Notes under the pieces: model-generated | Seen by the model: only the letters and a program-made list of their open reading frames with translations | Told to the model about the DNA's origin: nothing | Databases searched by the model: none | In this document: in pieces, positions 2,097 to 12,819 of the stretch | How positions within the stretch are numbered: the stretch's first letter is position 1 | Layout of the letters: every line of letters starts with the position of its first letter | Position numbers and translations under genes: made by a program | Virus record (IMG/VR): IMGVR_UViG_2740892218_000013 | Location: 1-16,956 of that record | Reading direction: 5' to 3' (one strand) | DNA: 16,956 nucleotides | From: a virus | Lineage: Duplodnaviria; Heunggongvirae; Uroviricota; Caudoviricetes

Positions 2097-3469
2097 ACGT
2101 CAGCCCCTTGTGCATATCGTCTGCCACGCGCAGCAGGCGCATTTGATGCTGTGCAAATCTGTCTGGCTTCATCCTGGTCACATGCAACAAAGTGTCCGTT
2201 GCAGAACCGCTGGTAAACCGTACCAAGCGAGCCAAAACGGTTTTTCGTCACAATGATTTCAGCAAATGGTGCGGCGCTACTGTTCTCGTCATATACCGCT
2301 TCCCGATAGAGCATGATGATTGAGTCTGCGTCCTGTTCAATGCTTCCTGAATCACGCAAATCTGCGTTTGTCGGGCGTTTGTTTGGTCGCTTCTCAACAT
2401 CGCGCGAAAGCTGACTCAGGGAGATAACCGGTGTTTTCAGGTCTTTCGCCATCGCCTTCAGGCTTCCGGAGATGTGAGCAATTGCGAGGTCGTTGCGGTC
2501 TGCTTTCGGCTTCTCAATCAGGCCAAGATAATCCGCCATGATGAGTGACAGGTTTGGATTTTCCTGTTTGTGTCGTTCTGCGATTGAGCGTATTTCTTCG
2601 ACCGATAACCGCGAGGCATCGACTACCCACACATCCAAATCTGCAAGCTGACTCATGCCGTTAGCAACACGCGCCCAGCCTTCGTCATCCATCGATGCAG
2701 GATTTCGCAGTACGCTAACCGACATCCTCCCGGCGTTGGCAATGCTTCGCTCTGCAATCTGCAATGCGCTCATTTCCATTGAGAAAATCAATACCCCGCG
2801 CCGGACGTCAGAACCAGGAATAACGCGGCTTGCAACGCCTTCGGCAATCTTCAGCGCCAGTTCGGTTTTCCCCATACCAGGACGAGCAGCGATTATCACA
2901 AGGTCTTCTGCGTTCATCCCTCCGGTGATGGCATCAAGTTCTTCGATTCCGGTCTTCAGGGTATCTGACTCTTCTCCGTTCCTCAGACGCCTGTCAAGCG
3001 TGTCAGTGTAGTCAGTGATGATTTCCCCTAACCGTACAGGTTTAACCTCGTCACGGGGCTTTCTGATGGCTGAGAGACGTTTTACAAGTTCATCCATCGC
3101 CTGACTCGATGCGTCGATGGTTCCGCTCTGAATTGGTTCACGCATTTCATCCATGATTTCCAGCACCAGACGGCGGTGATAGTTATCCGCGACCATTCCG
3201 GCATATCCCTTCAGGTTTGCGGCACTCGGGCAGTTTTTGCTGGTCATCAGGATTGACGTGAAATGCTCCTCTCCGCACTCCTCGGCAACCATCAGCGCGT
3301 CGATTAGGTTTCTGTTTCGCGCCTGCTTGCGGATAACCTCGAAGGCCTTCCGGTAGAGCGGAATTGAAAACGCTTCCGGCTCCAGCGTTGCAAGAACGTC
3401 ACTGGCGGTTGGAGTTAATCCACCAATCAGCAGGCCGCCGATAACGCTCGCTTCGATATCCTGTCTCAT
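2093..3469 (-). CDS. Replicative DNA helicase, DnaB family (P22 gene 12 type), 458 aa
   Basis: Walker [13 protein letters not shown] and DnaB-like C-terminal domain; occupies the lambda P position, so replication uses its own helicase rather than a P-type loader. ATGA overlap with the O gene. Confidence 0.9.
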
Positions 3470-4296
3470 GCAATCCCCCTGTCTGCAAACTTCCCTTCCC
3501 GTACTCCCGTTAACGAATCTTCCCTCAGCAGGTAATCAAAATCTGCCGTCCAGCCCGTGTCGTTGTCTCCGAAGTAAAACGGCTTGGCCTGATGCACAAA
3601 CGCCCTGACATACGCTCTGAAACCGTCCACGTTTGGCGTTTTCAATTGCGGAATGATTTTCTTCAGGCGGCGTTTGCGTTTCTCGTTGACCGCAACAGCA
3701 TGTGGAAGTCTGTCACCGACTTCGGTGTTGTAGGCGTTCAGGAAGGATTCGTAGTCGATTCGTTCTGCCTTGCGACGTTCAGGTTTAACCTGCCCATCGC
3801 CGCCCCCATTAGGGGGTAAGGGGGTATTTGTATTTATTGTCTTTTGTATATTGTCTTTTGTGTTTGACTGATTCGGTAAATTGCTTTTTACCGATTTGGT
3901 GAAGGTTTGTTTTACCGAATTGGTAAATGTTTTACCGAATCCGTTAACTTTCGTTTTCCACTCGGAAATGTTTGTATTCATACCAACTTGACGCCCCACC
4001 TGAATGAGAACTCCCATTCTGATAAGCTCGTTTTTGGCGGTAGAGCATTTGGTTGGTGCCATGCCAGTGAGTTCAGCGAACTGTTCGTTTCCGATCCAAT
4101 CTATTTTTTTGTTGTAACCGTATGTCTTGCGCCACACAGCCATAACAATCAGTAACTGATGTAGAGTAAGCCCGGAAAGCATGGCGGCTTCTAACAGTGT
4201 GTTTGCAGTCCGAGTGTAGCCATCTTCGAGTTCTGCCACGCGATGCTCCACGACCTCCAGTTGAGGCCTGTAATCAGCTAACTTAACGACGCCCAT
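3466..4296 (-). CDS. Replication initiator, lambda O-like, 276 aa
   Basis: N-terminal region resembles lambda O (DDGY.R....LLEA...; WRKTYGYNK); the gene contains the ori iteron array. Confidence 0.85.
3830..3950. repeat. Replication origin inside the O gene: about four ~20-bp iterons plus adjacent AT-rich tract
   Basis: Repeats ACCGATTTGGTGAA / ACCGAATTGGTAAA / ACCGAATCCGTTAA plus inverted copy ATTCGGTAAATTG at 3871-3950; ATTGTCTTTTGT occurs twice in the AT-rich tract 3830-3866. Order matches lambda ori relative to O transcription. Confidence 0.6.
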
Positions 4297-7764: not shown

Positions 7765-7880
7765 ATAAACAACAGAATAAATACTGCACTGTGTATTCAT
7801 TCCGACGAGTGAATACACGGAGCAATGTCGCTCGTAACTAAACAGGAGCCGACTTGTTCTGATTATTGGAAATCTTCTTT

Positions 7881-7907
7881 GCCCTCCAGTGTGAGGGCGA
7901 TTTTTTT
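7881..7907 (+). terminator. Rho-independent terminator immediately upstream of the 7920 gene's SD
   Basis: Stem GCCCTC (7881-7886) / GAGGGC (7893-7898), loop CAGTGT, then GATTTTTTT; GGAGGA SD follows directly. Confidence 0.55.
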
Positions 7908-7919
7908 GATGGAGGATAT

Positions 7920-8888
7920 ATGAGTGAAGTAACAGACTTAGTTGTTATTGAAAAAGCAAATGCAATGACTGTATTTCAGTCTGCAGACCAGATTGAAGAA
8001 ATCCTTCAAAAGGTTGAACGTGAAGTTATGTCCTTTGTGCCTGATATCACAACGGCAAAGGGCAGAAAGGAGATCGCTTCTCTGGCGTATAAAGTTGCGC
8101 AGACGAAAACATATCTCGATGGTCTTGGCAAAGACCTTGTTGCTGAACTGAAGGAAATTCCAAAGCTAATTGATGCCAACCGCAAGACAGTGCGCGATCG
8201 CCTTGATGAACTGAAAGCCAAGGCGCGCCAGCCTCTTACTGATTATGAGGAAGAACAGGCGCGGATTAAAGCCGAAGAAGAAGCTAAGGCAGCAGCTGAA
8301 GCTCTCGCAAAGCAAATTGAGTCTGACCATGAAATAGCTATTTTGATGGATCGCGAATTTGACCGCCAAAGAGAAGAGGCAAGACTCAAAGCGGAGCAGG
8401 AAAAGCGAGAGCATGAAGAACGATTAAAAAGAGAAGCTGAAGAGAAAGCCAGAGCAGAAGCCGAAGCAAAGGCAAAAGCCGAAATTGAAGCAGCAGCAAG
8501 GCGAGAAGCAGAAGCTAAGGCCGCAGCGGAACGTGCAGAGCGTGAACGCATTGAAGCCGAGCAACGAGCACAGCGCGAAGCAAAAGAGGCAGCAGAACGA
8601 GCTGAAAGAGAAAAGCAGGCAGCAATTGAAGCAGAACGCAGAAAAGCACAGGAGGAGGCTGAACGAATCCGTCGCGAGGCTGAAGCAAAAGAGCAAGCCA
8701 GAATAGCAGAAGAAAAAAGAATCAAGGACGAAGAAGATCGTAGAGCAAAGGATAAAGCTCACCGGAAAGAAGTAAATAACAAAATACTTGCTGACCTTAT
8801 CAAGGTTGGCGCATCAGAAGATGTTGCTAAAAATATCATAACAGCCATCGTAAAAGGCGAAGTATTCGCAACAAAAATAACCTACTAA
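7920..8888 (+). CDS. Coiled-coil protein, 322 aa, with long E/A/K/R-rich central repeat region
   Basis: ATG at 7920 after GGAGGA. Globular N-terminal ~110 aa, ~170 aa of EAKA/REAE-type repeats, short conserved C-terminal tail. Function unknown; sits just upstream of cIII. Confidence 0.65.
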   Translation: MSEVTDLVVIEKANAMTVFQSADQIEEILQKVEREVMSFVPDITTAKGRKEIASLAYKVAQTKTYLDGLGKDLVAELKEIPKLIDANRKTVRDRLDELKAKARQPLTDYEEEQARIKAEEEAKAAAEALAKQIESDHEIAILMDREFDRQREEARLKAEQEKREHEERLKREAEEKARAEAEAKAKAEIEAAARREAEAKAAAERAERERIEAEQRAQREAKEAAERAEREKQAAIEAERRKAQEEAERIRREAEAKEQARIAEEKRIKDEEDRRAKDKAHRKEVNNKILADLIKVGASEDVAKNIITAIVKGEVFATKITY

Positions 8889-9358: not shown

Positions 9359-10039
9359 ATGGGAACTGCAACATTAATACTCGGTGAGTCTGGCACCGGA
9401 AAATCAACCAGCATGAGAAATATCAATCCAGAGGAAGCAATACTTATAAAACCAATAGGCAAGCCGCTACCATTTAAATCAAAAGACTGGCTGGCATGGG
9501 ATGCCAGAGCAAAAAAAGGAACCGTAGTTACCACTGACAAATGGGATGTAATAGTTGCCGTAATTAAGCGTGCTCACGAATACGGGAAAAGAATCGTTAT
9601 TGTTGATGACTTCCAGTATGTGATGAGCAATGAGTTTATGCGCCGCTCAGAAGAAAAATCGTTTGATAAATTCACTGAGATAGGCCGTCACGCATGGGAG
9701 GTCATTAAGGCTGCACAAGATGCACCTGATGACCTGAGAGTCTATTTTCTTGCGCACACCGAAGAAACCCCTATGGGGCGCGTGAAAATGAAAACTATCG
9801 GCAAAATGCTGGACGAGAAGATCACTGTTGAAGGCATGTTTACTATAGTTCTTCGCACCCTTACCCGTGATGACCAGTTCTTTTTCACCACGAAAAACAA
9901 CGGTGCAGACACTGTTAAATCCCCAATGGGAATGTTTGATTCCAATGAGATTGATAACGATCTCTCTTTCGTCGATGCCACTGTTTGTGATTACTACGGC
10001 ATCAATAATGTTCATCAAATTAAGGAAAACGCCGCATGA
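9359..10039 (+). CDS. Sak4-type RecA-like ATPase (phage single-strand annealing recombinase family), 226 aa
   Basis: Walker A GESGTGKST near the N-terminus, Walker B IVIVDD, ~225 aa core-only size; lies where lambda has bet/exo. Confidence 0.7.
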   Translation: MGTATLILGESGTGKSTSMRNINPEEAILIKPIGKPLPFKSKDWLAWDARAKKGTVVTTDKWDVIVAVIKRAHEYGKRIVIVDDFQYVMSNEFMRRSEEKSFDKFTEIGRHAWEVIKAAQDAPDDLRVYFLAHTEETPMGRVKMKTIGKMLDEKITVEGMFTIVLRTLTRDDQFFFTTKNNGADTVKSPMGMFDSNEIDNDLSFVDATVCDYYGINNVHQIKENAA

Positions 10040-10623
10040 GCAACGTAATTTTTACTTATAACGAAGAAGCAGCACTGACCGCAGGGCAAGGTGGTTTTAT
10101 TAACGAAACTGGCGCTCATATCATTACCATTACTGAAGCAGAACTAAAGCAATCAGAAAAAGGCGCAAAATTTATTGAGTTTTCTGGCGAATCCGACGAC
10201 GGACGTAAAATACAATATCTTAGCGTTTGTGTTCAGAAAAATGACGGAACGGAAAACAAATTTGGCGCAAATGTCGTTCACGCCATGATGGGGTGTGCCG
10301 GTATTGGACAATTAACGCAACATATGGTTTCCGCCAGTAAATTTGTTGCACCTGAATTTCATGGAAAGAAAATCGGGTTAGTGCTCCAGAAAGTATTAAC
10401 CACAAACAAAAAGACTGGCGCAGACAGCTACCAGATGGAAATACGCATCCCGTTTATTGCACAAACAGGTCAAACCCTTAAAGAAAAGGCGGAAGGCAAG
10501 CAACCAGAAACTATCGCCAACATGGTTGCCAGCCTCAAAGATAAAGACAATCGCTCTAAAAACGTAAGCCAGAATCATGCAGATGATTATGGTTACAGCC
10601 AGAACGATTACCCTCCTTTCTGA
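10036..10623 (+). CDS. Putative ssDNA-binding protein partner of Sak4, 195 aa, with SSB-like acidic tail ending in Phe
   Basis: Translationally coupled to the Sak4-like gene (ATGA overlap). C-terminus ...HADDYGYSQNDYPPF resembles the SSB and T7 gp2.5 acidic tail with terminal aromatic residue. OB fold not verifiable by eye. Confidence 0.4.
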   Translation: MSNVIFTYNEEAALTAGQGGFINETGAHIITITEAELKQSEKGAKFIEFSGESDDGRKIQYLSVCVQKNDGTENKFGANVVHAMMGCAGIGQLTQHMVSASKFVAPEFHGKKIGLVLQKVLTTNKKTGADSYQMEIRIPFIAQTGQTLKEKAEGKQPETIANMVASLKDKDNRSKNVSQNHADDYGYSQNDYPPF

Positions 10624-10953: not shown

Positions 10954-11118
10954 ATGAGAGGACTTGCATACAATCCCGGCATTCTTCCGGCAGAAATGAT
11001 TATTCGCCAACGCGTAAAGCCAATGCCATCGAGAGAGGAATTGCTTAAGAGAAATTCTTTTCCATCAGTGAATCAAAACAAATATCTGAATGCGATGTGG
11101 CGGAGTGGGAAGAAATGA
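10954..11118 (+). CDS. Hypothetical small protein, 54 aa
   Basis: Internal ATG of track ORF 10921-11118, preceded by GAGGAA at 6-nt spacing. Confidence 0.3.
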
Positions 11119-11786
11119 AACAAATGTCACTAATTGAGATGGATGGTTTTCTGAAAGGTAAATGCATCCCAAGTGATTTAAAGGTTAACGAAACAAACGC
11201 TGAATATCTTGTCCGTAAGTTCGGTGAACTTGAATCAAAACTAGAAACGGCGTTGCGGGAGTGTCGTTCTGCTGGAATCACGATTGATAACCTTGAGGCC
11301 AAGTGCGCGGCGCTGGCAGCGGAGAATGCAAGACTGAAGGCCGGGGCTATGTATTTCTCATATGGCTCTGAATTTAGTTTCGAGTGTCACAAAACTGCTG
11401 AGGAGGCTATCGCTGCTGCTGAGGCTGCAATTGACGACTATAGAGGCGATGCTTGCGATGGATGGAGCGAAGAGGTCGAAAGCATTTGCTGGGGGGTAAT
11501 TATTCAGCAGGCAACCAAGGTCGGTGAACGCAAGAAGAGGAAATGCGACAGAGTATCACCATGGATTGAAAGAGTTTGTGATTATGAGCTTCGACCTAAT
11601 GTCGAAACCCCAGCCACCGATGCTTTCCTGGCTGAAGTACGAGCGCAGGGCGTGGAGATGTTTGCACAGAAATGTAACTCAAAATCCGAACAGTCATTTG
11701 CATCTGATATACGCGATAACTGGAAACTACTCGGTGAACATGCCACTGACTTTGCCGCAGAGCTTCGCAAAGGAGGCAACCAGTGA
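11097..11786 (+). CDS. Coiled-coil protein, possibly Ead/Ea22-like; start uncertain (11097 or 11115)
   Basis: Central coiled-coil ([39 protein letters not shown]); position between the recombination module and xis. Confidence 0.5.
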
Positions 11787-12052
11787 GTGAGTCAAAATGC
11801 CAAATTAATGGCAACAAGATAGAACCGTGCGCGGCTTTGGCAAAATCTCTCGAATATGGAAATCCAACATTCAAGAGTAAAGGCATATTTATCCCGGAAC
11901 GTGTGAACATAAACACCGGCGAGTCAGGCATAGATATTGCTCAAATTCACTCTGGGCAATATATCGGTCGTGGTGTTGCAATGTGTTTTTGCCCGTTCTG
12001 TGGTGAAAGTCTGAAAACGTGGGAAGCGGAGGCAACCAGTGAGCGAGATTGA
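11783..12052 (+). CDS. Hypothetical protein, 89 aa, GTG start
   Basis: Starts with GGAGGCAACCA-GTG-AGT-GAG overlapping the upstream stop; contains a CxxC pair (CPFCGE). Confidence 0.45.
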   Translation: MSESKCQINGNKIEPCAALAKSLEYGNPTFKSKGIFIPERVNINTGESGIDIAQIHSGQYIGRGVAMCFCPFCGESLKTWEAEATSERD

Positions 12053-12620
12053 CTATCAGGCACTGCGTGCTAAGGCAGAAAAAGCAACGTGTGGTGTGTG
12101 GTCGCTCGAATATGGAGAGGAGAGATTTGATGCTGGTGATGCGCTAATTCATCGTGAAGTTGTTGGATATCTTCCCATTTGCAGAATTGAAGGAGCGCAT
12201 CCTGAAAGCGGTTTCGATGAAGATTTCCAAATGGAACAGCAGGCCAATGCTGAATTCATCGCCGCAGCCAATCCCGCTACCGTCTTGGCGCTGCTGGATG
12301 AACGGGAAAGAAACCAGCAATACATAAAACGCCGTGACCAGGAGAACGAGGATATTGCGCTAACGGTAGGGAAGCTGCGCGTTGAGCTTGAAGCAGCAAA
12401 ATCAAAACTCAACGAGCAGCGTGAATATTACGAGGGAGTAATCGCGGATGGAAGTAAGCGCATAGCAGAACTGGAGGAGCGGGAAATACTGCTCCCGGAA
12501 CGTAGCAGTATGCTTCATCGAACAGATTTTCACGAGGATTACCAAACGGTAATGGCATACAAAGTTTCTGAGGTCATCGCTGCAATCCGCGCCGCTGGCA
12601 TTCGCATCAAAGGAGAGTGA
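12039..12620 (+). CDS. Ead/Ea22-like family protein, 193 aa, GTG start
   Basis: Motif EFIAAANPATVLALLDE followed by coiled-coil, typical of Ea22-like prophage proteins as recalled; same SD-GTG-MSE start cassette as the previous gene. Confidence 0.55.
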   Translation: MSEIDYQALRAKAEKATCGVWSLEYGEERFDAGDALIHREVVGYLPICRIEGAHPESGFDEDFQMEQQANAEFIAAANPATVLALLDERERNQQYIKRRDQENEDIALTVGKLRVELEAAKSKLNEQREYYEGVIADGSKRIAELEEREILLPERSSMLHRTDFHEDYQTVMAYKVSEVIAAIRAAGIRIKGE

Positions 12621-12621
12621 G

Positions 12622-12819
12622 ATGGACAAAAACACACCTGCTTACTGGAGTCTGTCACTTGATACCGAATGTCCAAAATGTGGTCACAATTTCGATCTGC
12701 TTTGTGATCCAGATTTCTGGGAGTTTTCTGGAGCTAAACAGGCATGTGAAGAAATAAAAGGTTACGAAACATGCTGTCCAGAATGTAACCATGAATTTAA
12801 AACAGATTTCGTGTATTGA
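12622..12819 (+). CDS. Small zinc-ribbon protein, 65 aa
   Basis: Two Cys pairs (CPKCGH ... CCPECNH); tightly packed after the upstream gene. Confidence 0.5.
   Translation: MDKNTPAYWSLSLDTECPKCGHNFDLLCDPDFWEFSGAKQACEEIKGYETCCPECNHEFKTDFVY

Follow-up and report, generated by a model that had tools for sequence, protein, structure and literature searches.

The stretch of DNA analyzed here (the window; 16,956 nucleotides of IMG/VR record IMGVR_UViG_2740892218_000013) corresponds to the early-left (ea/exo-xis) operon of an HK620/P22-like (Lederbergvirus-type) prophage. The phage encodes a recombination module of its own (9359..10623, + strand), made up of a Sak4 single-strand annealing protein (from 9359), which is 99% identical to the Sak4 of HK620, and an SSB-like partner (from 10036); it is followed by Abc2 (from 10647) and a DUF2737 gene (to 11118). 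The latter adjoins, through an ATGA overlap, a gene for a 223-aa protein (11115..11786, + strand; phrog_614, no Pfam match), and ATGA overlaps are also used by neighboring genes of the operon. Next come a four-Cys, zinc-ribbon-like gene of 89 aa (11783..12052, + strand; phrog_4030, no Pfam match) and a 193-aa Ead/Ea22-family gene (12039..12620, + strand; PF13935 (Ead_Ea22), E 1.1e-37), downstream of which lie more small genes and then xis and int. The same ORFs, including the 223-aa gene, were present in an independent gene call on contig BBVI01000025.1, and homologues that carry ATG at this position confirmed the start of the 89-aa gene.

Comparison of the two boundaries around the 89-aa gene revealed an exact 16-mer, GGAGGCAACCAGTGAG (hereafter junction J), that occurs twice on the + strand, at 11772-11787 (copy 1) and 12028-12043 (copy 2); beyond the 16-mer, the match extends to 19 of 20 bases (11772-11791 versus 12028-12047). 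The window contained no further copy when up to three mismatches were allowed, and none of 200 dinucleotide-preserving shuffles (0/200) yielded a J match. In both copies a Shine-Dalgarno (SD) sequence GGAGG (11772-76 in copy 1) is separated by the 6-nt spacer CAACCA from a GTG start codon, located at 11783 and 12039, respectively, which is followed by Ser-Glu; thus each copy provides the SD, the start and the first codons of the next gene, as the preliminary description had proposed. The identical cassette that it reported at two consecutive boundaries was recovered as the exact 16-mer within 19 matching bases of 20, except for the leading A of its 21-mer, which belongs to copy 1 only (AGGAGG, from 11771) and is replaced in copy 2 (CGGAGG, from 12027). 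It had also placed both copies over the upstream stop, and this is true of copy 1 alone. There the last five codons of the 223-aa gene (protein end ..LRKGGNQ) lie within J, and GTG overlaps the upstream TGA (11784-11786) by 4 nt as GTGA. At copy 2 the upstream 89-aa ORF passes through J in the +1 frame (..WEAEATSERD) and stops only at 12050-12052, 3 nt beyond the motif, so that it overlaps the next gene by 14 nt, out of frame.

Both copies span a stop/start junction, as do the at least 133 occurrences listed in our searches, and both have the layout of a coupled junction, in which the SD precedes, by 5-9 nt, a start codon abutting or overlapping the stop of the upstream gene. The annotated starts in JEP4, HK620 and E. 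coli 98219 are the same GTG, and ATG variants of the start codon were found at the identical position in homologues. Glu, the third codon, belongs to each gene family in its own right and lies outside the shared unit; 89-aa homologues with unrelated leaders still begin (A/G)TGAGTGA(A/G). Longer conserved islands adjoin the two copies on opposite sides. A C-terminal tail island (..FAAELRK; 11747..11771, + strand), common to otherwise unrelated upstream genes, runs straight into copy 1, and an Ead N-terminal island (MSEIDYQALR; to about 12069, + strand) adjoins copy 2. The layout in the window is therefore [tail]-J-[cargo]-J-[Ead], with a cargo core of 233 bp (11792..12024, + strand) exactly between the two J 20-mers.

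No inverted repeat involving J was found in the window, consensus scans detected no promoter-like or terminator-like site at either copy, and a scan of the whole window with Rfam covariance models at gathering thresholds gave 0 matches. RNA folding of the two copies gave z = -2.2 for copy 1 and z = +0.7 for copy 2, with different structures; only copy 1 was modestly more stable than shuffles, and no fold or hairpin was common to both. With the Rfam scan, the consensus scans and the folding all negative, a structured RNA, a promoter or a terminator was rejected as the identity of J. An att- or attC-like site for site-specific recombination was likewise rejected: there was no inverted repeat and no shared fold, and the integrase gene lies 2.4 kb away and is unrelated to the distribution of J. 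By eye, the Chi-like hotspot GCTGGTGG is absent from both strands of J.

The window also contains repeats of other kinds. Four direct repeats of roughly 20 bp (TGTTTTACCGAATTGGTAAA-like, with a spacing of 20-24 bp) at 3861-3947 lie inside a minus-strand ORF (3466..4296) and look like origin iterons within a replication-initiator gene. Degenerate GAAGCAGAAGC(T/A)AAGGC.. repeats at 8274-8718 encode a repetitive, E/A/K-rich and probably coiled-coil segment of a 340-aa ORF (7866..8888).

Searches beyond the window revealed wide reuse of J with different flanks. The exact 16-mer was found in at least 120 IMG/VR contigs, with at least 133 copies including those of the window and of JEP4, nearly all of them in the same operon context. 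A 62-nt island comprising tail, J and Ead start was found in 361 GenBank phage records, which included lambdoid siphoviruses, Stx phages, P22-like Salmonella phages and P1-like phages (for example HK544, the mEp phages and the P1-like RCS47). The preliminary description would have been contradicted by absence of the motif from related phages; its presence in these contigs and records, and as a one-mismatch copy in HK620, shows the opposite. Among the IMG/VR matches listed, the proteins flanking exact J fell into at least 17 clusters upstream and at least 16 downstream, paired in at least 35 combinations, which answers in the affirmative the earlier question of whether different cargo genes follow the junction. 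Ead was the downstream gene of 107 of the 133 exact copies listed, and at least 15 non-Ead clusters were also led by J, among them genes for proteins of 89, 74, 84 and 214 aa, a 164-aa protein beginning MTGHAAILDMCCG, a 335-aa protein beginning MSIVQRCRAESTF, and others. Some junctions (for example 89aa-J-MSGKRMTNREL and 89aa-J'-MNNRFYMM) had neither Ead nor a KGGNQ-tailed gene on either side. Contigs carried up to four near-J copies, and J-to-J intervals of 241, 253/256, 361 and 445-761 bp held one gene, others a few. J is accordingly a short conserved sequence with differing flanks, positioned at a gene boundary in several lambdoid lineages, as is required of a lambdoid boundary or linker sequence. 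In a search for the 16-mer in genome contigs (596 Gb), where roughly 280 matches are expected by chance, the matches listed look like chance occurrences in unrelated bacteria, plus a recurring Paraburkholderia match, and define no taxonomic range for J.

Analysis of the upstream genes revealed that J is read in more than one frame. The ending encoded through J was ..KGGNQ for at least 65 genes with an unambiguous frame and ..EATSE.. for at least 24, both frames being included in the counts since one upstream family (U3) has two open frames and a T-run. In one locus (L100), the frame was switched by a 1-nt indel with no other change, and variants of J were mostly nonsynonymous in the KGGNQ frame. 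Since J is read in two frames by the upstream genes, what is conserved is the DNA and not the peptide. For annotation, this means that the GTG starts and the short shared tails (..KGGNQ, ..EATSE..) of many ea "hypothetical proteins" would be by-products of the junction, not functional motifs. In family U3 itself (L016, L031, L046 and others), 7-9 consecutive T stand just before the tail, about 30 nt upstream of J, and two long frames, one of about 80 aa and an overlapping one of about 150 aa, stay open up to J; this arrangement could mark a frameshift-prone or slippery site, or reflect pseudogenisation.

The relationship of J to Ead genes was analyzed in loci picked by Ead protein similarity, independently of the J motif. 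In this sample, the exact 16-mer was present at 33 of 76 Ead starts, and J-like leaders (up to three mismatches) were present in 39 of 46 unique genuine Ead contexts; one such variant, GGAGGCAGCCAGTGAG, is a one-mismatch copy that is also the leader of HK620 hkaG. These frequencies show J to be the ordinary Ead/Ea22 leader, of which copy 2 in the window is an ordinary case, and judged from these contexts J is natively, first of all, the leader of Ead/Ea22-family genes. Conservation spans about -15 through the N-terminal codons of Ead and extends more weakly upstream as a ..(F/I)A(A/E)(Q/E)(L/I)RK tail of many otherwise unrelated genes. In copy 1 the tail is present and a non-Ead gene follows; in copy 2 the tail is missing and the Ead N-terminus is present; the part common to both is 20 bases. 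Ead genes are often arranged in tandem, and 2-4 copies of J per phage are common. Identity of the spacer across Ead contexts was 0.79-0.95, no better than at nearby synonymous sites, so that shared descent alone can explain it. In E. coli LF82 (locus L403, NC_011993.1, 1638-2201), RefSeq calls the J-led Ead gene a pseudogene "missing N-terminus"; J and a GTG start with MSKINYQALR are intact there, and the call is probably an artefact of annotating a gene with a GTG start.

Alignment endpoints were concentrated at the edges of J. In blastn comparison with the motif-selected loci, 88 HSPs started exactly at 12028 and 58 ended exactly at 11787, breakpoints that are partly forced in a sample chosen for the exact 16-mer; HSP starts also clustered at 11747-11766, in the tail island. 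In the Ead-selected sample, most alignments of relatives of this Ead allele also began at 12028. Pairwise comparison of contigs revealed 18 matches in which a J-bounded gene was present in one contig and absent from the other, with a single J at the empty site; both flanks were at least 93% identical over 150 nt, and identity was 90-100% per 50-nt block in the six pairs inspected. Examples are L357/L030, L035/L072, L259/L318, L285/L287, L251/L296 and L404/L005, and among the cargoes present or absent were a complete Ead gene, a gene of 481 bp, the 84-aa gene and the 89-aa gene in both of its alleles. The pattern is consistent with that expected from recombination between direct repeats. In L285/L287, the J of the empty site is a chimera with one J1-specific and one J2-specific base, which as a possible trace of recombination is only suggestive, because the same variant is also common on its own. 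The earlier suggestion that the junction could mediate modular exchange of the small ea genes thus gains comparative support from the reuse of J with different flanks and from the J-bounded filled/empty pairs.

The module combination of the window itself is rare. None of 5,426 complete E. coli genomes had a place covering at least 80% of window positions 11500-12300, and neither this exact arrangement nor an empty site with both of its flanks occurred among the sampled contigs or these genomes. One contig (L025) had the upstream gene end and J as in the window but another Ead subtype, and in LF82 a single J precedes the same Ead subtype, but the upstream gene differs. A second boundary island lies at the other end of the Ead gene (12588-12625), where the C-terminus ..AAIRAAGIRIKGE and stop codon (TGA, 12618-20), an SD (AAGGAGA) and the next ATG (12622) are packed together. 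In blastn against related loci, 53 HSPs started at 12585-12597 and 56 ended at 12620-12625, and with HSP ends piled up in this way the junction looks reused as J is.

The 89-aa cargo gene was joined through J or near-J to at least six different genes upstream, and was followed by J-Ead, J'-MNNRFYMM, J-MSGKRMTNREL or non-J junctions. The exact protein was present on two contigs only in a large collection, one of which (GCA_001514645.1, BBVI01000025.1) has the same gene order. The closest relatives of the gene (98-99% identity; L339, L340, L342 and L351) matched only 11792-12024 and had non-J flanks on both sides, which indicates at least one illegitimate or microhomology-mediated (non-J) joining in the history of the cargo. 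The family (window 11783-12052 and loci L323-L402) has a conserved N-terminal end and a conserved ..FCPFCGESLKTWE end, between which are two very different central alleles (about 55% overall identity), so that the 270-bp gene is itself mosaic. An identical 12-mer, CTCGAATATGGA (SLEYG), is located at 11848-11859 in the 89-aa gene and at 12104-12115 in the Ead gene, in both cases at +65 from GTG, and a hybrid gene in L069 changes partner directly after SLE; the SLEYG region may be an intragenic recombination patch, a small mosaic patch separate from J.

On balance, we favor the reading that J is probably both a translational-coupling junction and a short-homology boundary sequence for the gain, loss and exchange of single ea-region genes. 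J brings together the last codons and the stop of the upstream gene, a strong SD, the 6-nt spacer and the GTG of the next gene, so that the downstream gene would be translated by coupling to the upstream one. Since J is shared by many lambdoid phages with different DNA on either side, J and its islands (about 25 nt of tail and about 30 nt of Ead N-terminus) may act as a patch of short homology, at which recombination would insert, delete or swap whole genes, each recombinant retaining a working ribosome-binding site and start. We infer both parts, the coupling and the homologous or short-homology recombination at J as the source of the variants, from comparative sequence evidence. Candidate enzymes would be host RecA or phage annealases, for instance the Sak4/SSB pair, whose genes lie about 2 kb upstream. 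Against this reading, the exact shared core is only 16-20 bp, and with the longer islands on opposite sides at the two window copies, homology between copy 1 and copy 2 amounts to 20 bp only, whereas about 30 bp is quoted as the least homology that RecA and Red use efficiently (PMC2327257). RecET-type enzymes are reported to join homologies of 5-13 bp at low frequency (PMC2327257), and the Sak4 of HK620 is a characterised annealase (PMC5928155). Given the Sak4/SSB pair in the phage and the RecET precedent, the enzymology of exchange at J would be plausible.

Another account, possible though rather unlikely in our judgment, takes J simply as the native 5' leader of Ead/Ea22 genes, inherited with the gene, which would have acquired new neighbors by random illegitimate recombination and selection, the process by which Hendrix and colleagues reportedly explain lambdoid joints. 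The homology at J would then have no causal role, and the copy before the 89-aa gene would be a one-off fusion. This account agrees with the predominance of J before Ead (107 of the 133 exact copies listed and 39 of 46 unbiased Ead contexts) and with a core shorter than the roughly 30 bp usually needed (PMC2327257), and the unrelated flanks of the cargo's closest relatives indicate that non-homologous joining did occur. However, the same J leads at least 15 non-Ead clusters, follows at least 17 upstream clusters and is also found between two non-Ead genes, and repeated, precise J-bounded variants with a single J at the empty site are unlikely to arise from independent random joints.

We consider improbable a stronger version of exchange at J, in which J-bounded genes would behave as genuine cassettes: two J copies would recombine to release a circle or segment of J plus cargo, able to re-enter any J in a co-resident lambdoid prophage. 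If it were so, every cassette insertion would be expressed automatically, since J carries an SD, a start and a stop usable in two frames, and the system would be an analogue of the T4 PeSL mini-circles or of integron cassettes, built on a translational junction, phage annealases and 16-20 bp of homology. Very unlikely is the view that J acts in cis as a translational operator, bound by a small RNA or by a protein of phage or host origin that would co-regulate the J-led genes. The non-SD spacer CAACCA and its flanking bases are identical in many contexts and all J-led genes lie in one early operon, as an operator would have it, but the spacer varies about as much as the neighboring synonymous sites (0.79-0.95 identity), Rfam gave no match and the two window copies lack a shared or unusually stable fold (z = -2.2 and +0.7); we know of no regulator acting on J. 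The idea that the copies are leftovers of a tandem duplication, with the downstream genes as diverged paralogues, which had been named as a finding that would undermine the preliminary description, can largely be dismissed: the first 41 residues of the two proteins do align in register by BLASTP (14/41 identical, E 0.008; residues 4-41, 11/38 identical, a value reached in 2 of 200,000 shuffles) and the genes share CTCGAATATGGA at the same offset, but this weak match is countered by profile-profile comparison of the families (hhalign probability 0.4%), by their assignment to different PHROG and Pfam families (phrog_4030 without Pfam versus Ead_Ea22), by the occurrence of the 89-aa family with completely different leaders and trailers, and by the limitation of the SLEYG patch to one Ead subtype, which makes it look like a local recombination patch.

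As a probable coupling junction and boundary sequence, J is a well-documented example of a kind of element that has already been proposed, and the idea itself is not new. Combining an exact 16-mer with dozens of different flank pairings, naturally filled and empty sites and an adjacent characterised annealase, it offers a compact, abundant and easily assayed test case for the debate between linkers and illegitimate recombination as the origin of lambdoid mosaicism. Short conserved "boundary sequences", seven of them published for HK620, were proposed as foci of recombination with the HK620 genome (Clark et al. 2001, J Mol Biol 311:657), and the idea goes back to the "linker" of modular theory (Susskind and Botstein 1978), both as cited in PMC3029335 and PMC2327257. 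As portrayed in those citing papers, lambdoid boundary or linker sequences resemble J in being short, conserved, located at a gene or module boundary amid unrelated DNA, and proposed as recombination foci; moreover, the early-left operon in the window resembles that of HK620, a phage whose hkaG start carries J with one mismatch. Unlike them, again as so portrayed, J bounds single small genes within one module and not functional modules, and doubles as SD, start and stop, read in two frames. Among the papers covered by a full-text search, the 16-mer or its 12-15-mers turned up in irrelevant ones only, and the junction is not discussed in the ea22 literature (PMC7093339).

Three other systems share features with J. 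The ATGA/GTGA coupled junctions of phage and bacterial operons likewise place the SD inside the end of the upstream gene, with a 4-nt start/stop overlap as at copy 1; ordinary junctions of this type are specific to a gene pair, whereas the 16 bases of J recur unchanged at dozens of unrelated gene pairs. The PeSL (promoter-early stem-loop) cassettes of T4-type phages are mobile regulatory units whose mini-circles were shown physically (Arbiol et al. 2010, PMC2839356). In that system, repeated expression signals surround small non-essential ORFs in a hyperplastic region, and recombination between the repeats explains insertion, deletion and replacement (PMC2839356); as with J, the small accessory ORFs between the repeats are present in some close relatives and absent from others, and the filled/empty pattern of J is analogous. 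PeSL is transcriptional, with a sigma-70 promoter and a terminator hairpin, whereas J is translational and has no promoter, terminator or hairpin. Finally, relaxed (homeologous) recombination by phage annealases has been described as a source of lambdoid mosaicism (Martinsohn et al. 2008, PMC2327257; De Paepe et al. 2014, PMC3945230). As in the case of J, short stretches of elevated identity ("HR traces") border the mosaic segments, and an annealase is among the phage's own gene products (PMC2327257, PMC3945230, PMC5928155); the homologies in those studies are longer and partly diverged, whereas J is very short but exact.
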